Positions 9,412-56,801 of a stretch of DNA of 60,563 nucleotides are shown here, one piece after another. Position 1 is the first letter of the stretch, and the number at the start of each line of letters is the position of its first letter. Below the pieces are notes generated by a model, which was not told the DNA's origin, searched no databases, and saw only the letters and a list, made by a program, of their open reading frames with translations. A program made the position numbers and the translations under genes. The DNA comes from an uncultured Candidatus Saccharibacteria bacterium. GTDB taxonomy: Bacteria > Patescibacteriota > Saccharimonadia > Saccharimonadales > UBA10212. The DNA lies in the NCBI GenBank assembly GCA_964624785.1, contig CAZUXR010000003.1, positions 1 to 60,563 on the forward strand, read 5' to 3'.

Positions 9412-10698
9412 GTGGGTTCAAAACGAGTAGCGGTAGAACGCGCCCTGTACTTTATGTTATTTGGGCTTATGGGGCTATCGCTGCTCCTGTTCGTCTTCCA
9501 GAATAACTATAAGCATTTGTGGGAATTATACGGGCGTGTGTATTTTATATTGCTCCTAATTTACACGTGGTTTATATTCATCCTGCTTTTTATCGGAGAT
9601 ATGAAAAAGCCGAAGACTTACGCTTTGCCTGCGCAGACGAACAGCGCTGGTAAACGGATAGCCGTGGTTATGCCGTGTTTTAACGAATCGGCAGAACTGC
9701 TGTATAGATCGGTAAAATCAATATTTTTTGCGGAAGGCACTAAAGAGATTTTGATCGTCGACGATGGTTCTACGGATTTAAAGTCAAAAGAACTCTTGCG
9801 GCAGCTAGCGGCAAATACCAGCATTAAAATTCATTTTTTTGATAGCAATAAAGGCAAGCGCCACGCCCTACACTACGCCGTTAAGCGCCTTACAGAACAC
9901 GCGGATTATGTGGTGACAGTAGACAGCGACACAGTGTTAGATAAATACGCGCTGGTTCGGTTAATTGAACCTTTTGAGGATCCAAAAGTTGGCGCCACAA
10001 GTGGCGATGTGCGGCTGTTGAACGAAAAAAAGAATGTTCTAACAAGGATGGTTGGTGCTTACTATTGGATCGGCCTTCATATTTATAAACGTGCCCAGTC
10101 AGCGATCGGGATTGTAGTATGTTGTAGCGGGTGCTTGTCGGCTTACCGCGCGGATTTGATGAAAGGGCTTATTGATGAATTCGTTAATCAGAAGTTTTTT
10201 GGAGAGCAATGTACGCACTCAGAAGATCGCCATTTAACCAATCTGGTGTTAAAAAGGGGATTCCATGTAAAATTTGTGCCCGAAGCCATTAGCTATACAG
10301 AGACGCCGTCAACGGTAAAAGGATTTTTAAAGCAGCAACAACGCTGGAAGAGGGGGTACATAAGAGAGTCAATCTATACGCTTACGTACGCTTGGCGCGT
10401 GCGTCCTATATTGTTCTTCGAAATTTTGTTATGGGAATTGACTATCCCGTTTTTGTCATTTGGGCTTATGATAGCGCTGTTCGTGTCAATTGTTACCGAT
10501 CCTATGTTCTTTTTAACAACTGTTTTGCCGGCTTGGATAATGTTTATGATTGTGCGCTATATCCACATATTCTTTTACGCAAAACGTAAGATACCCGGGC
10601 TGCTGGTTTACATGGTTTTTTATGATTTGTTTTTGTATTGGCAAAGTATTTACGCGTTGTTTACGGTAAGGAATAAAAGCTGGATTACACGCGGATAA
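9412..10698 (+). CDS. Processive GT2 glycosyltransferase, hyaluronan synthase/NodC-like
   Basis: DDGS, DSDT, CCSGCLSAYR, SEDRHLTN, QQQRW motifs; N- and C-terminal TMs. Confidence 0.85.
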   Translation: MGSKRVAVERALYFMLFGLMGLSLLLFVFQNNYKHLWELYGRVYFILLLIYTWFIFILLFIGDMKKPKTYALPAQTNSAGKRIAVVMPCFNESAELLYRSVKSIFFAEGTKEILIVDDGSTDLKSKELLRQLAANTSIKIHFFDSNKGKRHALHYAVKRLTEHADYVVTVDSDTVLDKYALVRLIEPFEDPKVGATSGDVRLLNEKKNVLTRMVGAYYWIGLHIYKRAQSAIGIVVCCSGCLSAYRADLMKGLIDEFVNQKFFGEQCTHSEDRHLTNLVLKRGFHVKFVPEAISYTETPSTVKGFLKQQQRWKRGYIRESIYTLTYAWRVRPILFFEILLWELTIPFLSFGLMIALFVSIVTDPMFFLTTVLPAWIMFMIVRYIHIFFYAKRKIPGLLVYMVFYDLFLYWQSIYALFTVRNKSWITRG

Positions 10699-16105: not shown

Positions 16106-17119
16106 CTAAAGTCTTCGGAGTTTGCGTCGAGCTGTTTCGAAACTGTATGTTAGTGGGTAAACTACAGGGTTAATAATGAGATCGTGTGCTGGCACATAAG
16201 CAACATCTTGTCCGCCGAAACCACGTTTAAAAACCGACACACCGTAGAATCGATGTTTTGTTTGCCCGTGATCGGTAATGCCCCAAAAGTTATACCGAGT
16301 GCAGCCGCGTTTTTTAGCCTCGGCAATTGCTTGCCACTGTATAGCATAAGCACCCGGGAATTTACGCGCTAGGTCCGTGCTGGCTCCGTAGTGATAAGCC
16401 GCCTCTTTGCCGTAAAAAATTATAAAAGCCATGGCGAGTAGTTGACCTTCATATGTGCTGCGGTATAAAAGTACTTTTCCGTCTTTGGCGAAAGCTTTAA
16501 ATTGTTCATTTAAAAACTTCTTGCTAAATGGCACAAATCCTTGTCGTTGCGCTGTAGCTAGCTGCAATTTATAGAACTCATCAATATCTTTAGTGTCGTT
16601 GCTGGATGAAACTTCTATGCCGAGCTTTGTCGAGCGGTTTATTTCGTATCGGGTGCCCTTTCGCATGGCGTGTTTTAATTCCTCTTCGGATAAGCTTAGA
16701 TTAAGCTGGCTGGTTAGGTCTGCCGTAGCGTGCATCGGGCTTTTGTGAAATCCAAGTTTACGAATGTTGGCACGATTCGACAGCATATCTAATAGTTGTG
16801 GCCGTAGACGCACAAAGATACATTTGTTATCGGCAGCAGCTTTTTTGACTGTATCTCGCCATTCGGTAACAATTTTTTGATCATTCCAGTCTAAAATAGG
16901 TCCACCTACGATAACCATATGGCGTCCGCGCCGTGCCGGTTCGATTACCCCCTGAGTAACGCCTACCAACTTGGAATTTTTATAAAACCCGTATCGCAGG
17001 ACTTTGTGCCCTAGGCTTTCGTGGAACTCACCCCAATTCCAGGAATGTAAAAAGTTGGCTTCCGGGTGGGTGGACATAAAATCCTCCCATTGTCGTTTAT
17101 CTTCTATGATTTTTGCCAT
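16106..17119 (-). CDS. FemABX-family aminoacyl-tRNA-dependent peptidyltransferase
   Basis: NFLHSWNWG, GGPILDW, TRYEINRS, AYHYGAS, YNFWGI, GVSVFKRGFGG; compact FemX-like size without coiled coil. Confidence 0.9.
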   Translation of the reverse strand: MAKIIEDKRQWEDFMSTHPEANFLHSWNWGEFHESLGHKVLRYGFYKNSKLVGVTQGVIEPARRGRHMVIVGGPILDWNDQKIVTEWRDTVKKAAADNKCIFVRLRPQLLDMLSNRANIRKLGFHKSPMHATADLTSQLNLSLSEEELKHAMRKGTRYEINRSTKLGIEVSSSNDTKDIDEFYKLQLATAQRQGFVPFSKKFLNEQFKAFAKDGKVLLYRSTYEGQLLAMAFIIFYGKEAAYHYGASTDLARKFPGAYAIQWQAIAEAKKRGCTRYNFWGITDHGQTKHRFYGVSVFKRGFGGQDVAYVPAHDLIINPVVYPLTYSFETARRKLRRL

Positions 17120-49095: not shown

Positions 49096-49172
49096 TGGTG
49101 CCCCGGGTAGGAATCGAACCTACGACCTGTGGGATAGAAGCCCATTGCTCTAATCCGCTGAGCTACCGGGGC
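49096..49172 (-). tRNA. tRNA-Arg(UCU)
   Basis: GCCCCGG...; loop CT-TCT-AT; GTTCGA; CCA. Confidence 0.95.
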
Positions 49173-49321: not shown

Positions 49322-49396
49322 TGGTGCGGGATACCAGAGTCGAACTGGTCTCTCGAGTTTGGAAAACTCACATATTAACCGATATACGAATCCCGC
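49322..49396 (-). tRNA. tRNA-Gly(UCC)
   Basis: GCGGGAT...; loop TT-TCC-AA; GTTCGA; CCA. Confidence 0.93.
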
Positions 49397-49465: not shown

Positions 49466-51754
49466 TTAAAGCTGCGGACGGATTTCATTTAGCGCCTGGT
49501 TAACAGTTTCTACTGCAACGCCGCTTTGTTTGATGTAGTTAAGTTCTGCGTTTAGATCGCTTGGCTGCGTGGTATACAGGGCGTCAGTTGGATCGCTAGG
49601 AGTGGTAGCGATCTCGTGATAAACAAGAATCAACCAGCCTTTTTGGGCGATTGCTGCTTGCACCCAGCCCTGGACTTGCGCCTGGCTTATGTTGCTGTCG
49701 ACTTCGTAGATTTTTAGAGTAGTTATGTCGAAGTTGTCTTTAGTATTGATGCCGCCGTTAACTGTTCGTTGGCTTTGGTAATATTGTTTGCCAACTGTGA
49801 TGGTGTTAGCGTTGTAGGCTCCGAATGGATAGGCGAAATCTGTGACAGGTGTTCCCAGGGCATTCTGCAAGGTTGCTTGGCTTTGGCTCATCTCGTTAAC
49901 CAAATTGGCCTGCGACAAGGTAGTTAGGTCCGGATGAGTCACAGAATGTGAGCCAATCTCGTTACCAGCTGCTTGCAAGTTTTTAACTTGAGCTAGGCTC
50001 ATGTAGTCGGGCTGGTAAGTTAGTTCGCCAGATATAATGTAGAATGTTCCATTTAATCCATACTGCTTAAGTAGAGGGAAGGCGTTGGTGTATTGGTTAG
50101 CCCATCCATCGTCGAAGGTTACGCTAACAATCCCACGGTTGAATGGCACAGGAGTGTACTCGCTCAAGGAGTAATCGTCGCTAACTATATAGCCTGGTTT
50201 TGCAAGTATTTGGTATATTGATACGCTTTTGGCGCCAGCCGGAGCCATAAAGGTGGTGCTGAATTTTGTCCAGTTGGTGTTGGCAAGAACGGTGCCAAGC
50301 CAGTAATACTGAACGGTGCCGTCGGCCATGGTTACGCCAGCATCTACCTCTGTGTCGACATTGGACTGGTACCAGTTTTCGTATTTATAAGTTTTACCAG
50401 CGATTGCGGGAACATCTGCGTAGTACCAGTTTGCAGCGCCGTTAGTATAGCTGGTGATCTCTGTTTTAACGCTGTGAGTGCCGGTGTGGCCAGTGTTTAG
50501 GTAGGTGAATGCAGCGGTGTTGGTGCCCCAATTGCTGGTTAGCCAGTTTTGTGGAGCGGTTCCGTTAGCCGTTTCAAAAGAAGGGTTAGGAATTAGGTTT
50601 GGCAAAGCAGGCGGAGGAGTTACAACATTTTGGACATTTACGGTCGAAGTTGCAGTAGTCATGAGTCCGCTGGCATTACGAGCGGTAGCAGTCAGTGTGT
50701 GCGTGCCATTTACCGCGCTTGTGGTGTCCCAGTTTACTGAATAAGGTGCGGCTGTATCTTCGGCTCCCAGGTTGACATTGTCTAATTTGAACTGCACCCC
50801 AGCCACGCTTGCGGCATCACTAGCAGTGGCACTTACTGCTTGGGCATTACCGCTCACGGTAGTGCCGTTAACAGGCGTGGTTATAGTAACCGTAGGTGCG
50901 GTTGGGGGTGCTACATTCTGCACATTAACCGCTGTAGTTGCGGTAGAAGTCAGTCCACTAGCGTTTCTGGCGGTAGCCGTAAGCGTGTGAGTACCATTTG
51001 TAGTTGTTTTTGTATCCCAGCTGACTGAGTACGGAGCAGTTGTATCTTCGGTGCCAAGATTAGCTCCATCTAGCTTGAATTGTACGCCGGCCACACTTGC
51101 GGCATCGTTGGCTGTTGCTGTCACCGCCTGAGTGCCGCTAATAGTTGAATTGGCCGCTGGACTAGTGATTGCAACTGTTGGCGCAGTTGGCGGGGTGGTA
51201 GTTGTAGTTGCATCTGCCAAACTAAAGTCGTCGGTTTGAAGCCAACCAACCTTATTGATAACATGGAATATAGAAAGCGACTTTACGTTTGCAGGAGTAG
51301 TAAAGTCAAACGACTTAGCTTGCCAGGTTGTAGTATTGGCAGTGGCGCCGCCTAGCCACACGTAAGACAAATTGCCAGCCGTGTCGGTATATTCAATATC
51401 TATCTCGGTAGCTACATTAGATTTATAAAACTCGCTGTAAGTATATTTTTTGCCGGGCGTAACTGCTAACGAGCTAAAATTCCACTTAGCATCACCGCTG
51501 GTACGCTTGGTCATATTTATATACAGACTTTTTGTGCCAGTGTGACCCTCAGTTGTTTTGTATGTAAAAGCTGTAGTGTTTGTGCCCCATTTGTCCTGGT
51601 TCCAGCTTAGCGGCAGGGTTCCAGACGTGTTAGCCGATTCCACAGAAGGGTTAGCTAGTATATTAGTGCCAAGAGCACTAACTAGGCCTAAAGGAGCTAA
51701 TCCAGATAAAACTACTATTGTTGATGCGGCCGCAAGGGCAAGCTTTTTAATCAT
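49466..51754 (-). CDS. Secreted polysaccharide deacetylase (NodB/CE4) with two CBM-like and two Ig-like domains
   Basis: Signal peptide; two NPS.E domains; two VAGVQFKLD..NLG.EDT.APY Ig repeats; TFDDG, HSVTH, AYPFG, LVYH; start set at ATG 51754. Confidence 0.9.
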   Translation of the reverse strand: MIKKLALAAASTIVVLSGLAPLGLVSALGTNILANPSVESANTSGTLPLSWNQDKWGTNTTAFTYKTTEGHTGTKSLYINMTKRTSGDAKWNFSSLAVTPGKKYTYSEFYKSNVATEIDIEYTDTAGNLSYVWLGGATANTTTWQAKSFDFTTPANVKSLSIFHVINKVGWLQTDDFSLADATTTTTPPTAPTVAITSPAANSTISGTQAVTATANDAASVAGVQFKLDGANLGTEDTTAPYSVSWDTKTTTNGTHTLTATARNASGLTSTATTAVNVQNVAPPTAPTVTITTPVNGTTVSGNAQAVSATASDAASVAGVQFKLDNVNLGAEDTAAPYSVNWDTTSAVNGTHTLTATARNASGLMTTATSTVNVQNVVTPPPALPNLIPNPSFETANGTAPQNWLTSNWGTNTAAFTYLNTGHTGTHSVKTEITSYTNGAANWYYADVPAIAGKTYKYENWYQSNVDTEVDAGVTMADGTVQYYWLGTVLANTNWTKFSTTFMAPAGAKSVSIYQILAKPGYIVSDDYSLSEYTPVPFNRGIVSVTFDDGWANQYTNAFPLLKQYGLNGTFYIISGELTYQPDYMSLAQVKNLQAAGNEIGSHSVTHPDLTTLSQANLVNEMSQSQATLQNALGTPVTDFAYPFGAYNANTITVGKQYYQSQRTVNGGINTKDNFDITTLKIYEVDSNISQAQVQGWVQAAIAQKGWLILVYHEIATTPSDPTDALYTTQPSDLNAELNYIKQSGVAVETVNQALNEIRPQL

Positions 51755-51916
51755 TTGTACGTCCTTCTTGGTCCACCCATTCACATGTTTCTAATGATAT
51801 TCTACAACTTATAACATACTCTTGTCAAGGATTCTGAAAATATCTACAGATCAAAGCATAAGCAAAAAATACACAACATACAACATTGCCAAACATACAA
51901 AAATATAATATAAGGC

Positions 51917-51943
51917 TTGACAGAAAAGCCAACATAGTATAAT
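51917..51943 (+). promoter_or_regulatory. Promoter of the LPXTG-peptide / deacetylase / GT2 unit
   Basis: TTGACA and TATAAT hexamers 15 nt apart (17 nt to the alternative TAATAT). Confidence 0.55.
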
Positions 51944-51988
51944 ATACTTACAGTTCAATAATGTTAAGGGTGGAAAGAGGAAATACTT

Positions 51989-52150
51989 ATGAGTGGACAA
52001 GGAAAAGTTCTAGGTGCTACAACTTCTAGCGTTGTTGCTGGTGCCGCAGTACTGCCTAACACAGGTGGTAACATGGTTATCACATTAGCTGTTTCTCTCG
52101 CTGCCGGCCTGGTAGCTTGGGGCACACTATACGCCTACGCTAACCGTTAA
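51989..52150 (+). CDS. 53-aa LPXTG-motif micro-protein
   Basis: MSGQGKVLGATTSSVVAGAAVLPNTGGNMVITLAVSLAAGLVAWGTLYAYANR; SD GAGG; LPNTG followed by a TM helix. Confidence 0.8.
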   Translation: MSGQGKVLGATTSSVVAGAAVLPNTGGNMVITLAVSLAAGLVAWGTLYAYANR

Positions 52151-52193
52151 AGTTAGCTTAAAGCACAATTACCGACATTAAGTGGGAAAGACT

Positions 52194-53093
52194 ATGAATA
52201 AGAAGAAGCTTACAAAAGCCAAACAAAAAATAGTCAAAACACTGGTGTCGGTTTTTGTTTTGGCGATAGTTTTTGCTCCGTCGCTACTGACTGTAAAGTG
52301 GGCAATAGGGGTGATTGGTGGCAATGATTCCCGCAAGACAGTCAAAGTAGAGGCGTCACAAACCCGCTTGGCAGATAAAACCGCTGAACCCATAAGACCG
52401 TTTGATCAGCCGCTGGTTAGCGTGACCTTTGACGACGGATGGGGATCAGTCTATACGCGGGCTCTGCCAGTTCTACAGCAAAACGGCATTCACACAACCC
52501 AATATGTTATAACAGATACATTTAATCAACCGTCTTATATGTCAGTTAAGCAGCTTAAATCTATGCAATCTGCTGGCCACGAAATTGCCGCTCATACTAT
52601 TACGCACCCAGACCTTACAATGCTCGATGATAAACAACTCGACCATGAGCTCAGTGGTTCGCAGCAGACAATAACTAAAGATTTTGGTCTGACCAAAGAC
52701 TTTACATCTCCGTACGGTGCCTATAATGCCCACACCCTGAGCGAAATTAGCAAGTATTACCGTTCGCAAAAAAATGCTGAAGGCGACCCAGCTGCCAATG
52801 CGCTGGGCAACATAAATATTAAAAGCAGCTTTAATGCGCTTAATCTCAAGTCATATTCGGTTCGCAAATCTACAACAGTTTATGACCTGCAGAAGTTGTT
52901 AGATGAAGCAAAAGCTCGCAACGGTTGGCTAATTTTAACTTACCACCAAGTGGATTATAGCAATGAAGAGTATAGTGTTAACCCTAAAGATTTCGCCGAC
53001 CAGATGAAGTTCATTGGATCGGATAAAACCCGCAGCGCAACAGTCGGCCAAGTATTGGATTCTATTGCTGCTAGCCAAAAAAGGAGTAATTAA
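52194..53093 (+). CDS. Membrane-anchored polysaccharide deacetylase (NodB/CE4)
   Basis: TFDDG, HTITH, SPYG, LTYH; N-terminal TM. Confidence 0.9.
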   Translation: MNKKKLTKAKQKIVKTLVSVFVLAIVFAPSLLTVKWAIGVIGGNDSRKTVKVEASQTRLADKTAEPIRPFDQPLVSVTFDDGWGSVYTRALPVLQQNGIHTTQYVITDTFNQPSYMSVKQLKSMQSAGHEIAAHTITHPDLTMLDDKQLDHELSGSQQTITKDFGLTKDFTSPYGAYNAHTLSEISKYYRSQKNAEGDPAANALGNINIKSSFNALNLKSYSVRKSTTVYDLQKLLDEAKARNGWLILTYHQVDYSNEEYSVNPKDFADQMKFIGSDKTRSATVGQVLDSIAASQKRSN

Positions 53094-53094
53094 T

Positions 53095-54366
53095 ATGAAA
53101 ACCATTAGACCCCTAAAATATGCTATAAATTACGCCAACAGGAAAACTCAGTGGCATGGCCGTCCAGTAATCGCTCCTCTAAATAGGAATACATACTTCA
53201 TTACTAAAAAAAGAGCACATGCAGCCGTGGCTAAGATTATGGTTCCCGTAAATCCGTCAAAGCATATAACTCAGGCAACTCCACGAGCCTTGGGCAATAA
53301 ATCTAAACCTTTGATCGCGCTGTTGATCGCTGCGCATAATGAGGAAATCGTTTTGGGTAGAACCATCCAATCTGCGATTGATGCCGGTATGTCATTGCAG
53401 GACATTTATGTAGTGGATGACAATTCGAGTGATGCCACAAGCGAAGTTGCTAAGGCAATTTTGCCATCCGAAAATGTTATAAAAGTTGAGCGCAGCGGTA
53501 AAGGTCTAGCGCTAACAAAAGGTTCAAAAAAGTTTGAATTAACAAAACGCTACCGTTGGATTCACATTGCCGACGCCGACGGTGCATTTGCTCCGGATTA
53601 CTTTACGATCTTCCGCCGTGAACTGCGCATAAAAAATGCTGCCGCTACTGGGTATATCCGTAGTTTACCTGGCAAGCGTGTCAGTGAATATAGAGTGTTT
53701 GAATACACTATTGGCATGGAAATTCACCGCCGACTGCAAACTATGCTCAACGTTGTTCCAGTTATACCTGGTCCGACTTCTTGCTTTCGTGCTGATGTTT
53801 TTGAAAAAGTTAACTTTGATAACAAATCGTTAACCGAGGATTTTGACGTAACTATGCAGCTTCACCGGAAGAAGCTTGGTACAGTGCAATTTATTCCAGG
53901 TGCCATTGCATACACCCAAGATCCTAAAACCATCAGGGATTACACTAAACAGATTACCCGCTGGAACCGCGGCGGCTTGCAGAGTATGATTCGCCACAAA
54001 ATAGGTCGCAAGGCTACTCCAATCGATGCGTATTTGTCCTACCAAATAATGCAAAACCTGCTTTTCTTTGTTAGTTATCTAGTGTGGGTTCCTTATTTGA
54101 CCATCACTCGCCATACTTCGGCGGCTCTTGCTATGGCTTTTGTAGTCGATGTGTTCGTGACATTTATTATCAACTTTATGGCTGCTGCTCGTTCCAAGCG
54201 CTGGGATGTTATCAGTGCTTTTCCCCAGGTGTATATGATCAGATGGATAAGCCTAGGTGTATTCTTAAAAGCATTTGTAGAAGTAGTTATCTTGCGCAAA
54301 TTTCGCAATACCGATGGATTGTGGGAAAACCGCAGCGACCGTCGCTATATAATGGAAACTGCTTAA
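53095..54366 (+). CDS. Processive GT2 glycosyltransferase (IcaA/PgaC/cellulose-synthase-like)
   Basis: AAHNEE, DDNSSD, DAD, TEDFD, QITRW; C-terminal TMs; SD AAGGAG before ATG 53095. Confidence 0.9.
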   Translation: MKTIRPLKYAINYANRKTQWHGRPVIAPLNRNTYFITKKRAHAAVAKIMVPVNPSKHITQATPRALGNKSKPLIALLIAAHNEEIVLGRTIQSAIDAGMSLQDIYVVDDNSSDATSEVAKAILPSENVIKVERSGKGLALTKGSKKFELTKRYRWIHIADADGAFAPDYFTIFRRELRIKNAAATGYIRSLPGKRVSEYRVFEYTIGMEIHRRLQTMLNVVPVIPGPTSCFRADVFEKVNFDNKSLTEDFDVTMQLHRKKLGTVQFIPGAIAYTQDPKTIRDYTKQITRWNRGGLQSMIRHKIGRKATPIDAYLSYQIMQNLLFFVSYLVWVPYLTITRHTSAALAMAFVVDVFVTFIINFMAAARSKRWDVISAFPQVYMIRWISLGVFLKAFVEVVILRKFRNTDGLWENRSDRRYIMETA

Positions 54367-55145
54367 AACAAGCTTTTTAGGTCGGTCCAGAACGAGGATC
54401 CTTGGCTGGGCAACTTGCTGCCTTGGGCATTGGTTGGTAGCATAGCGGCTTGGGTGGCGTCGTGGTTGTTGCTCACAGCTGGGATTATCTGCTGAGCCTG
54501 GATTACAAGTCGCTTAGAACTTGTTCCGACAGGGGTGCATGTTAAGAGGGTTAACATATGATTGCTACTTTGGTTAAGCACGGATAGATCGGTTGGCTGC
54601 ACGATTTTTGTATTATAAACCCTGTAGATATAACGAGTGCCCTGGTATTCCAGATAAATTCTGTCTTCTATCTTCACTTTGTCTAGCAGTGTAAAGATAA
54701 ATTTATAATTTCCTGGCGCCCACCATTGACCGCTTGAATGCCCAAAAATCACTACGTTTCCAGTCTGGCCTGGGTTGGCGGTGTTAGGGTAATGGACTAC
54801 TCCATTGTGAAGCGCTTTCTGGAAAGTACCCTCGTTAATAGTGGTTTGATCAAATATAACAGGAGCAGTGACCTTAATGCTATTAATTATAAGTTTTGGC
54901 GGAGCATTTTTATCTGTTGATGCGGCGGCAACCTGATTGTCCTGCACGGTCTTTTGGCCGTTGTGGTCATTGAGGTAATATGCAATCCTGCCCGATAGCA
55001 GTTGAGAGTTAAAAAATCCAAAAACTAAAACCGCTACCAATAGTCCACCTAGCGGCGGTATGACATGTTTTTTGAACTTTAGGCTTACGCGAGTTCCAGC
55101 TAGCTCTGGTTTTTTTGATTTATTTTTCTTTTTTGTTCTGACCAT
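54363..55145 (-). CDS. Sortase
   Basis: N-terminal TM; GHSS, TLLTC, KRL catalytic His/Cys/Arg. Confidence 0.92.
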   Translation of the reverse strand: MVRTKKKNKSKKPELAGTRVSLKFKKHVIPPLGGLLVAVLVFGFFNSQLLSGRIAYYLNDHNGQKTVQDNQVAAASTDKNAPPKLIINSIKVTAPVIFDQTTINEGTFQKALHNGVVHYPNTANPGQTGNVVIFGHSSGQWWAPGNYKFIFTLLDKVKIEDRIYLEYQGTRYIYRVYNTKIVQPTDLSVLNQSSNHMLTLLTCTPVGTSSKRLVIQAQQIIPAVSNNHDATQAAMLPTNAQGSKLPSQGSSFWTDLKSLF

Positions 55146-55183: not shown

Positions 55184-56707
55184 CTAGAGTTCGTGGATTA
55201 CGCTTATTCGGGCGCCAAGGCTGTTTAGGCGGTCGGCCAAATCTTCGTAACCGCGGTTGATGGTATAAACGTTGCGCAGCATCGACGTTCCTGGGGATGC
55301 AAGCATGCCAATTAAAAGCAGTACCGCCGGCCGCAAACCGCTGGGCGCAACAATGTCGGCGGCCCGCCAATCGGTTGGACCGTCGATAAATACGCGGTGC
55401 GGGTCGGCTAACTCTAGTTTGACCCCGATCTTCTTCATTTCCGTATACATCAAGGCACGATCTTCATAAACCCAATCGTGAATTAGCGTGCGTCCGCGGG
55501 AAACGGCACAAATTGGAACAAAATACGGTAAATTATCTATGTTTAGCCCAGGGAAGGGACGTCCGTAAAGTTTTTCTTCCGGAGCAGTTAATTTGCCGTT
55601 GTGCTTGTAGATTATTAAATCTACCAAATCGGTGTGACCGTTATCTGCCTTATAGCTGGGCCCCGAGTTAAATTTAAGTCCCATCTTTTCCAGTTTGAAT
55701 AACTCCAGTTCTACAAAGTCGATCGGCACGCGTTTGATTGTTATAGAAGAGTTAGTGGTAACGGCCGCCGCGATGAAAGTCATTGCTTCTACTGGGTCTT
55801 CGCTCGGGGAATAAGTAACATTTTTCTTAATCGATTTTACGCCGCGTATTCGCAAAGTAGTCGTACCAATTCCATCGATTTTAACGCCAAGTTTTTGCAA
55901 GAAATAACACAAATCTTGAACCATGTAATTTGCGCTCGCCATTTTTATAATAGATTCGCCTTCGAATCCAGCCGCTGCCAATAGAGCGTTTTCTGTTACG
56001 GTGTCGCCAGATTCGTACAAAACAATAGGTTTTTTAGGCAGGTGTTTAGAAACTCTTATACTGTAGTGGCCGTCGTGGGCAATAACATTTGTGCCAAATT
56101 CTTCTAAGGCGTAAATGTGTGGCAGGACTGTCCTGCGGCCGAGTTCGCACCCACCAGCGTATGGCACCTTGAAGTTATCGTAATCATGCATTAACGCACC
56201 TACTAACATGATTACAGCCCGGGTTTTACGAGCGGCGGTTTCGTTTATGGCACCCAGCTTAAGCTTTTCTGGAACTTTAATTTCCAAATCGCTATCGCCA
56301 ACCCAGCGTACATGGACACCTATACTTATCAGGACTTCTATAATTCTATTTAATTCCTCTATTTTTGGAACGCGTTTTAGTCGCGTTGTGCCTTTGTTGA
56401 GCAGGCTGGCGCACAGCAGTGCTACAGCTGCATTTTTAGAAGTTTTAAGCTCGATTTCACCGCGCAAGGGGTGCCCGCCATCTACCCGCAAGTTAACTGC
56501 GCCGCTATTTACGGATATGATTTGTTTATTAAGTACATCGCTAATTCGGCCTAGGGTATCCAAACTTAGGTTTTGATTGCCGTGCTCAATGCGATTAACG
56601 GCCGATTGGCTGGTACCAAGTTTTTTGGCAAATTCGGCCTGAGTAAGGCCACGTTCTTGTCTTATTTTTTGGATTAATAAACCAATTTTTTGATTAGTGG
56701 TATGCAT
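55184..56707 (-). CDS. murA: UDP-GlcNAc enolpyruvyl transferase with N-terminal XRE HTH
   Basis: RQERGLTQAEFAKKLGTSQSAVNRIE HTH; SKNAA, GGCELGRR, TVTEN, PFPG, INRGYE. Confidence 0.9.
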   Translation of the reverse strand: MHTTNQKIGLLIQKIRQERGLTQAEFAKKLGTSQSAVNRIEHGNQNLSLDTLGRISDVLNKQIISVNSGAVNLRVDGGHPLRGEIELKTSKNAAVALLCASLLNKGTTRLKRVPKIEELNRIIEVLISIGVHVRWVGDSDLEIKVPEKLKLGAINETAARKTRAVIMLVGALMHDYDNFKVPYAGGCELGRRTVLPHIYALEEFGTNVIAHDGHYSIRVSKHLPKKPIVLYESGDTVTENALLAAAGFEGESIIKMASANYMVQDLCYFLQKLGVKIDGIGTTTLRIRGVKSIKKNVTYSPSEDPVEAMTFIAAAVTTNSSITIKRVPIDFVELELFKLEKMGLKFNSGPSYKADNGHTDLVDLIIYKHNGKLTAPEEKLYGRPFPGLNIDNLPYFVPICAVSRGRTLIHDWVYEDRALMYTEMKKIGVKLELADPHRVFIDGPTDWRAADIVAPSGLRPAVLLLIGMLASPGTSMLRNVYTINRGYEDLADRLNSLGARISVIHEL

Positions 56708-56801
56708 ATTGGCTAACAAATAATACCACAACCGATATAAATTTAATACAAAACCGATTAACCATTCATTAACCGAATTTGTCTGCCCAAGTAGCTCAAC
56801 A

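Follow-up and report, generated by a model that had tools for sequence, protein, structure and literature searches.

What does a sortase do with a substrate that has no passenger? This question is raised by a 60,563-nt stretch of DNA (the window) from an uncultured Candidatus Saccharibacteria bacterium (GenBank assembly GCA_964624785.1, contig CAZUXR010000003.1; contig C3 of an 844-kb genome), in which a 53-codon gene for a leaderless micro-protein with an LPNTG motif is found next to genes for a CE4 (NodB-type) deacetylase, a processive family 2 glycosyltransferase (GT2) and a sortase. We found that the 53-residue open reading frame (ORF) is a genuine conserved gene that encodes little beyond a cell-wall sorting signal, that its association with GT2 and sortase is widespread in Patescibacteria, and that it follows GT2 more tightly than sortase. 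The reading that we favor, tentatively and at somewhat less than an even chance, is that the micro-protein is a GT2-partnered glycan carrier that the sortase fixes to peptidoglycan.

An artefactual ORF was ruled out by conservation, by nonsynonymous polymorphism (pN) below synonymous polymorphism (pS) and by a conserved promoter. Among five 53-codon orthologs, pN was 0.09-0.25 and pS 0.23-0.74, with pN lower than pS in 10/10 pairs; the ORF is thus under purifying selection. The ORF starts with ATG and contains LPNTG at residues 22-26 (codons 52052-52066), followed by a hydrophobic stretch with a 19-residue Kyte-Doolittle (KD) mean of 1.6-1.7 (windows starting at residues 25-31) and a single terminal Arg; Lys6 is present in its head. 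A first-pass annotation, made by a model from the DNA letters, had described this ORF, its transmembrane (TM) helix and a Shine-Dalgarno (SD) site, all of which were confirmed, the SD being AGAGGA. In the consensus promoter that it proposed, the perfect pair in the window is separated by only 15 nt, a promoter scan paired TTGACA with TAATAT instead (17-nt spacing, 10/12 match), and promoter-like sites in the region were not above shuffled sequence (16 versus a mean of 12.8). However, TTGAC and TATAAT were unchanged across 6/6 aligned orthologous loci. The gene was also described as unannotated; it fell below the first ORF track, but public sources call many homologs, some under the name "LPXTG-motif cell wall-anchored protein". 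Sequencing-run matches were four DNA runs from one soil study, with no RNA run among the matches listed, and an Atlas search with the micro-protein returned hypothetical-protein clusters only.

Anatomy of the family was analyzed with 109 unique peptides from 110 loci, omitting four long or truncated peptides and five without an automatic start. Residue 2 was Tyr in 71, Ser in 26 and Thr in six peptides (a hydroxyl residue in 103/109), and Gly occupied position 3 in 63. As background, Tyr was found at position 2 in 1/226 SD-started ORFs; 1000 shuffles of the N-tails gave a mean of 4.8 and a maximum of 13 Tyr-2 peptides, and Tyr occurred beyond position 5 in only three real N-tails. A second, overlapping set, made up of 144 cluster representatives, had Tyr at position 2 in 69, Ser in 47 and Thr in 12. 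Because the seed alignment was mostly Ser-2, the Tyr-2 signal was not introduced by the query. Judged by these residue counts, the N-terminal hydroxyl at position 2 is under selection. This constraint, as well as the closer tie of the micro-protein to GT2 than to sortase, had been overlooked in the first-pass annotation.

Past the first residues, the head (from Met to the Thr of the motif) varied in length and sequence and was mostly 20-28 residues long; the N-tails were near neutral and 76% Gly/Ala/Val/Thr/Ser. Lys was present in 38/109 N-tails and absent from 71/109, including those of the closest orthologs, Gly-2 was found in 1/109, and a GKG motif in 23/109 peptides. LPNTG occurred in 65/109 and Thr at motif position 4 in 105/109, the Pro being fixed by the search pattern. 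The last 14 residues contained 2-5 Lys/Arg in 103/109 peptides, compared with one Arg in the window peptide. An SD match of at least 5/6 was found in 89/109 members, partly by construction since starts were picked by SD score. The earlier statement that the window peptide has neither a signal peptide nor a folded passenger could be extended to the family: no signal peptide or exported passenger was found, the 12-residue KD maximum reached at least 2.0 in just 5/109 heads, and the peptides contained no pilin domain, pilin motif or folded domain. Near-neutral heads and basic tails would fit N-out insertion without a signal peptide. In addition, two Cys a few residues apart were present in some heads (L038, L084, L107; P0027, P0039, P0157), a possible extracellular disulfide loop. 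The GxVLG motif shortly ahead of the sorting signal was also found in many long secreted Patescibacteria proteins (L183, L190, L192, L193, L195, L196, L034:9752-10351), where it may form part of a longer signal for sorting or processing.

The single micro-protein sequence used as a query matched 19/61 relatives. A 22-row profile matched 152/401 genomes of the order Saccharimonadales, in which homolog labels place the window, including three unpublished ones (G303, G323, G330), with the weak end of this list taking in C-termini of long proteins; its matches formed 309 clusters (50% identity), and nearly all of the 150 listed were 48-98 aa long. We took 120 regions, 20 from the single-sequence search and 100 by profile ranking to an E-value of about 6e-7 plus one at 1e-5; the unpublished genomes and one 1.1-kb contig were left out, and the micro-protein was absent from two regions. 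Neighboring genes were labeled with hidden Markov models derived from the same loci, with Pfam and NCBIfam used for spot checks. In 86 well-flanked loci including the window (three long-passenger loci and loci with less than 3 kb on either side were excluded), a processive GT2 was present within 3 kb of the micro-protein in all 86, sortase in 81, CE4 in 66 and all three in 64. Sortase was within 300 bp in 70/86. These loci are kin, and the counts do not represent independent events. The most common order was micro-protein, sortase and GT2 plus a divergent large CE4, and only a minority of loci have the arrangement of the window (micro-protein, CE4, GT2, convergent sortase).

Catalytic residues were largely retained at these loci: His/Cys/Arg in 114/120 sortases, TFDD in 87/94 CE4s and the processive motifs in the GT2s. 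One clade contained 97/120 sortases and is usually found downstream of the micro-protein (the dedicated sortase). The GT2s belonged to several types with mutual identity of only about 20-40%. Given this diversity and the occurrence of sortases of different clades, both enzymes have been exchanged while the micro-protein persisted. The ORF, its LPxTG motif and its linkage to sortase and GT2 are kept in homologous loci, so that the idea of the first-pass annotation withstood the conservation check by which it could have been refuted. In a sample of the phylum, the dedicated sortase was detected at an E-value of 1e-25 in 22/401 genomes, 14 of them outside the order, and in 5/14 a leaderless 60-66-aa look-alike adjoined an intact GT2. 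The murA-glyA pair is a common insertion site, and a murA-glyA-murB block flanked the cassette at 39/88 loci. Additional genes recurred near the cassette, including GH10-family hydrolases (11 loci, e.g., L042:7416-9179) and an unnamed 410-450-aa secreted family (11 loci, e.g., L038:3530-4759), both possible chain-release enzymes; GH16 was a neighbor at four loci.

The dedicated sortase also serves a sister cassette. Its profile matched 142/401 genomes of the order (the same three unpublished genomes included), and 35 further loci, mostly without a nearby micro-protein match, were added. The gene preceding 139 dedicated sortases was the micro-protein in 92, a passenger protein in 29 and neither in 18 (five of the 18 had a micro-protein within 3 kb). 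The passenger protein is 170-220 aa long and has a signal peptide, Asn/Thr/Gly repeats and LPxTG. GT2 was intact at 93/93 uncut micro-protein loci of the dedicated sortase clade, with three VDD variants counted as intact; at micro-protein loci outside these 93 it was cut in two and missing from the available DNA in two. An active GT2 was found at 0/29 passenger loci: 20 lacked the motifs, eight gave no match (two are TM-only remnants by eye) and one was cut. Loss of DxD, TED and QxxRW was seen in the alignment of 8/8 sister-cassette GT2s examined. In the GT2 tree, built by FastTree and subject to long-branch warnings, 24 dead GT2s formed one side of a branch (SH-like support 90) that lay within the active type I enzymes (98). 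Loss of GT2 activity was probably one evolutionary event and is therefore one strong clue rather than 29. The protein passenger seems, from this pattern, to have replaced the GT2 product. The sister-cassette loci (L154:5565-6101, L175, L178-L182, L199-L210, L214, L216, L219-L228) often contain an additional 580-730-aa repeat protein. For the repeat protein of the sister cassette, the predicted structure had a pLDDT of 43.6 from eight sequences and Atlas matches below 0.8, which gave no support to a beta-solenoid.

Similar peptides were found in Actinobacteria. At one locus of the candidate phyla radiation (CPR), the dedicated sortase and CE4 occurred with a GT2 related to hyaluronan synthase (HAS) and NodC and with a different, 54-aa peptide; relatives of this GT2 include proteins of Streptomyces, Pseudonocardia and Carbonactinospora. 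A GTDB scan for the HAS-like GT2 gave two loci. Of seven plasmid matches to this GT2, five were examined, and in 4/5 a leaderless 53-66-aa LAxTG-TM gene was located immediately upstream of the GT2; one of these four loci has a divergent class E sortase and two have UDP-glucose dehydrogenase. No CE4 was found within 4 kb of the look-alike at these four actinobacterial (Pseudomonadota-free) plasmid loci. The fifth locus, from Actinomyces, has CE4-GT2 only. A hand tally of 67 metagenome loci gave a clear peptide in 20, a partial one in three, an Actinomyces-like arrangement without peptide in 42 and none in two.

Among 26 look-alike peptides that precede HAS/NodC-like GT2s (Actinobacteria and some CPR), L[AP]xTG was present in 20, of which 12 had LAxTG, and heads were just 8-13 residues long. 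Tyr was found within positions 2-5 in 16/26 (background 17/304) and Ser-2 in nine more. Five of the 26, from low-GC loci (L251, L253, L255, L256, L261), keep Tyr-Gly-Lys and the TM, whereas their sorting motif has been lost. Actinobacterial-type peptides retain a cytoplasmic tail of the form R-x-x-[FW]-R-R. Twenty Actinomyces-like GT2s begin with an additional TM and basic tail that outscored 317/319 control TM segments, with scores of 15-21 compared with 32-54 in true members, all in one lineage. On this sequence similarity, the extra segment (e.g., L243:3548-5098; about 20 metagenome loci, L262-L304) may represent a fusion of peptide and GT2. CPR and actinobacterial peptides share architecture and context, and we treat them as look-alikes rather than as homologs.

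The window enzymes have intact catalytic motifs, and Pfam agreed with the first-pass assignments of the NodB deacetylase, GT2, convergent sortase and divergent multi-domain deacetylase. Both CE4 domains passed the PF01522 cut-off (91 and 100 bits versus 23.1) with TFDD, HxxxH, PxG and LxxH complete. The sortase scored 95 bits against PF04203 (cut-off 26.6), has the His/Cys/Arg triad, and was below the NCBIfam cut-offs for classes C, D, E and F (NF058671, 81.7 versus 140; class C, 78.6 versus 160; class E, 75.7 versus 160). It is one of three sortases in the source genome and clusters with that on contig C20, outside the 97-member clade. Besides the micro-protein, one clear LPNTG protein was identified by eye among 17 pattern matches in 7170 ORFs (555 aa, C9:6298-7965), with no adjoining sortase. 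A class-F-like sortase adjoining a 202-aa secreted protein was observed at G000 C4:21645-23259. The predicted structure of the window GT2 (pLDDT 85) has no N-terminal membrane helix, and its closest folds were hyaluronan and chitin synthases (hyaluronan synthase, TMq 0.66-0.69). TIGR03937 (PgaC/IcaA) was the top NCBIfam match of this GT2 and of 7/8 other GT2s scanned. Assignment of the window enzyme as a PgaC/IcaA synthase of poly-N-acetylglucosamine (PNAG) was rejected (81.7 versus a cut-off of 422.3), as were assignments to the XrtG-associated GT2s (TIGR03111, 42 versus 364) and to NodC (score under the cut-off). The CE4 neighbors suggest that the GT2 product contains N-acetylglucosamine. 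Coordinates are given in Table 1.

Table 1. Features of the micro-protein locus and other genes of interest in the window
Feature	Position	Strand	Remarks
Leaderless 53-aa micro-protein	51989..52150	+	M-S-G N-terminus; small-residue spacer with GxVLG motif; LPNTG; TM helix; terminal Arg
Shine-Dalgarno-like AGAGGA	51976-51981	+	7 nt ahead of micro-protein ATG
Sigma-70-type promoter	51917..51945	+	TTGACA 51917-51922; TATAAT 51938-51943; hexamers conserved in orthologous loci
CE4/NodB-type deacetylase, membrane-anchored	52194..53093	+	PF01522; TFDDG, HxxxH, PxG, LxxH motifs intact
Processive GT2	53095..54366	+	D, DxD, TED, QxxRW intact; GT-A domain and three C-terminal membrane helices in model
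Sortase	54363..55145	-	PF04203; H136/C203/R212; convergent with GT2, 4-nt overlap
Divergent secreted deacetylase	49466..51757	-	763 aa from ATG 51757; CBM4_9 - Big_7 x2 - CBM4_9 - CE4
Promoter-like site for divergent deacetylase	51799..51828	-	TTGACA-18-TAGAAT, 11/12; consensus match only
tRNA-Arg	49096-49172	-	Left border of cassette with tRNA-Gly; common insertion site type
tRNA-Gly	49322-49396	-	Left border of cassette with tRNA-Arg; common insertion site type
MurA-type enzyme (5-enolpyruvylshikimate-3-phosphate synthase fold)	55184-56731	-	Fused N-terminal XRE helix-turn-helix
FemAB-family peptidyltransferase	16148-17095	-	Suggests branched peptidoglycan stems, possible acceptors of sortase products
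Second processive GT2	9412-10698	+	Best NCBIfam match NodC (201 versus cut-off 550); no adjacent micro-protein, sortase or CE4

If the micro-protein is a glycan carrier, its helix, predicted to be N-out, would lie in the membrane beside the synthase, and the N-terminal Ser/Tyr hydroxyl, or a site close to it, would bear the sugar chain. After cleaving LPNT/G, sortase would link the 24-residue head with its glycan load to an amine of peptidoglycan. CE4 enzymes would then remove acetyl groups from the chain once exported, a form of tailoring that is optional. The GT2 product itself would be the passenger, with glycan at the N-terminus, sortase acting at the C-terminus and peptidoglycan as acceptor. 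This reading is the simplest one because the peptide travels with GT2, keeps its hydroxyl even without a sortase motif, and adjoins an active GT2 only when passenger-less. Motif-less peptides with Tyr-Gly and a TM would be expected if a carrier that is not cut still held the glycan at the membrane. Attachment to the wall by sortase is plausible, and FemAB-family, Mur ligase and YidC genes were found in the genome; YidC is involved in N-tail export. Protein-primed glycans are known from glycogenin Tyr priming, proteoglycan Ser-Gly cores and Tyr-linked S-layer glycans. In a broader form, which is possible and on balance doubtful, a "mini-proteoglycan" pathway would be common to Patescibacteria and Actinobacteria: a leaderless 50-65-residue core would be loaded with glycan on its N-terminal Tyr/Ser by the partner GT2, cross the membrane with the help of the synthase and be locked onto peptidoglycan by sortase, so that a peptide would anchor synthase-made polysaccharide covalently to the wall, and the protein-display cassette with the dead GT2 would have evolved from this pathway later.

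Several points weigh against the carrier. A processive GT2 acts in the cytoplasm, so that the carrier model requires passage of a primed N-tail through the membrane together with its glycan, for which we know of no precedent. The conserved hydroxyl is a sign of constraint, not of glycosylation, and glycosylation, GT2 contact and cleavage are all deduced from sequence. Sortase was missing within 3 kb at 5/86 loci. The 42 Actinomyces-like loci without a separate peptide show that GT2 can work without the N-tail. Dead GT2s are kept as open frames at most sister loci, with two as TM-only remnants, and this retention points to a non-catalytic, scaffold-like tie. In addition, hhalign of CPR versus actinobacterial peptides gave 63%, with the motifs out of register, which falls short of homology.

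The strongest competitor to the glycan carrier is an accessory subunit similar to PgaD/IcaD, which we consider possible and rather unlikely. Here, the helix of the micro-protein would complete or stabilize a TM-poor synthase, the polymer would not be bonded to the peptide, and cleavage would mature, regulate or merely anchor the head. PgaD is a precedent, being a small membrane partner essential for PgaC (PMC8892547). The window GT2 model has just three membrane helices, the cytoplasmic tail of actinobacterial-type peptides is conserved, and dead or TM-only GT2s persist by sortase and substrate, all consistent with a structural role. The fusion-like N-terminal TM of Actinomyces-like GT2s also fits, but its scores remain under those of true members and come from one lineage. 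Nearest neighbors by TM plus tail shared GT2 type in 81/85 cases, compared with 72/85 by N-tail, a test confounded by kinship. An accessory subunit leaves unexplained the selection on the N-terminal Tyr/Ser, the adjoining dedicated sortase (within 300 bp at 70/86 loci) and the exact coincidence of GT2 inactivation with the gain of a passenger by the substrate. The two readings are compatible in part, and both predict GT2-peptide contact.

The first-pass annotation had proposed that sortase joins the peptide to deacetylated polysaccharide or wall, or polymerizes or cyclizes it, giving a peptide-tethered exopolysaccharide. Of these ideas, the wall link is plausible given the FemAB-family and Mur ligase genes, and the amine ligation is weakened. 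Resolution of the sortase acyl-enzyme by CE4-made glucosamine amines, which would graft the peptide head onto polysaccharide, appears improbable. It would account for the co-occurrence of CE4, GT2 and sortase within 3 kb at 64/86 loci and for the intact CE4 motifs, and the distinct sortase clade at most loci could use an unusual acceptor; transpeptidation onto a glycan occurs in type IX secretion (T9SS), which joins the protein C-terminus to an aminoacylated sugar (PMC7468200). However, CE4 was absent within 3 kb at 20/86 loci, within 4 kb at 4/4 plasmid loci and near 23/26 actinobacterial-type peptides (some flanks are short), and the same sortase clade serves passenger substrates by dead GT2s, where there is no polymer to accept them. 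The T9SS acceptor is Ser/Gly on the sugar, and no such aminoacyl transferase was found among the recurrent neighbors. Motif-less peptides exist as well. Moreover, ligation of LPNT to the polymer would give a peptide-decorated and not a tethered product, because cleavage removes the membrane anchor. SrtA accepts 6-amino sugars but not glucosamine, a point that the literature searched did not confirm. We also regard as quite unlikely a chaplin-like role, in which sortase displays the cleaved, hydrophobic Gly/Ala/Val/Thr head for its own sake, as a wall peptide that binds or templates the co-produced glycan non-covalently. Composition of the N-tails and display of an Asn/Thr/Gly repeat protein by the same sortase clade would agree with it, as would the fact that chaplins are class E sortase substrates and that CslA glycan anchors amyloid fimbriae (PMC8225981, PMC8892547), but actinobacterial-type heads are very short, heads vary widely past the first residues, and motif-less and fused forms are not explained. 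Finally, pilus-style polymerization or cyclization through Lys or the N-terminal amine is very improbable. Lys6 and the GKG motif, and the best scores of the window sortase being against class C/D models, below cut-off, point in this direction, but most N-tails lack Lys, no pilin features are present, and position 2 is Tyr in 71 peptides; the N-terminal Met is normally retained before Tyr. Lys- or Gly-mediated polymerization was thus ruled out as the family mechanism by the Lys (38/109) and Gly-2 (1/109) counts.

Comparison with known systems places the micro-protein among sortase substrates of an unusual kind. As in LPXTG/LAXTG substrates, there is a motif-TM-basic tail signal and a neighboring His/Cys/Arg sortase, and in high-GC actinobacterial-type loci the motif is often LAxTG, which is the class E sortase motif (PMC8225981). 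Unlike these substrates, the micro-protein has no signal peptide or passenger, a constrained N-terminal Tyr/Ser and a fixed GT2 pairing. At an E-value of 0.1, PF00746 and TIGR01167 gave no match to the window peptide and weak matches in seven and ten of 22 aligned members. NF058583 (LAXTG_small_WW) is a 54-position curated family of stand-alone small sortase-motif proteins, but it matched neither the window peptide nor any of 22 CPR members, and weakly matched 5/16 actinobacterial-type peptides (13-15 bits versus a 65-bit cut-off). PgaC-PgaD and IcaA-IcaD with the CE4 proteins PgaB/IcaB also combine a processive GT2 and deacetylases with the gene for a small membrane partner; however, the cassette GT2 scores far under the cut-off, and the micro-protein has one TM and a sortase motif, which PgaD/IcaD are not known to have. 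No cyclic di-GMP partner or IcaC was found among recurrent neighbors of the cassette. Exosortase PEP-CTERM/EpsH, XrtG and T9SS PorU with anionic lipopolysaccharide (A-LPS) similarly have, in one locus, genes for a transpeptidase and for glycan biosynthesis along with a sorting signal at the C-terminus (PMC12854382, PMC7468200), whereas the cassette enzyme is a true sortase with a passenger-less substrate, and its GT2 is far below the TIGR03111 cut-off. In Streptomyces, CslA, chaplins and class E sortase bring together at one surface a glycan made by a GT2 and small hydrophobic proteins anchored by sortase, but chaplins carry signal peptides as well as folded domains, their genes do not accompany cslA, and the cassette GT2 is closer in fold to hyaluronan/chitin synthases. 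Glycogenin, proteoglycan and S-layer glycans also start from or are bound to the hydroxyl of a Tyr/Ser, in many cases with Gly as the next residue; this is an analogy for the carrier model only, with no sequence relationship.

It has been reported that more than half of CPR genomes contain a sortase family (PMC6744442). No description of the cassette was found in the literature searched, with supplements such as the CPR family tables of PMC6744442 outside the search, and the available portions of PMC9126251, PMC13278184 and PMC8672522 contain nothing on it. Pinning of a sugar chain to the wall by a tiny sortase carrier, the likely role of the micro-protein, would be a kind of anchoring not described in that literature. 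The cassette is real, widespread and a new variant of sortase sorting, and there is a fair chance that it represents new glycan-anchoring chemistry.

The micro-protein profile matches more than one third of the Saccharimonadales genomes sampled. Little is understood of how monoderm cells retain synthase-made polysaccharides (PNAG, hyaluronan, chitin-like chains), and almost nothing is known about the surface chemistry of Saccharibacteria, whose cells live attached to Actinobacteria. The occurrence of a matching two-gene unit in cultivable Streptomyces and Pseudonocardia makes the question testable now; examples of the actinobacterial unit are found in NZ_CP108710 and NZ_CP012183. If the carrier model is true, the cassette would provide a new covalent route of glycan anchoring and a new role for sortase; if the subunit model is true, GT2 synthases would still have a small, widespread partner whose gene often escapes gene callers.

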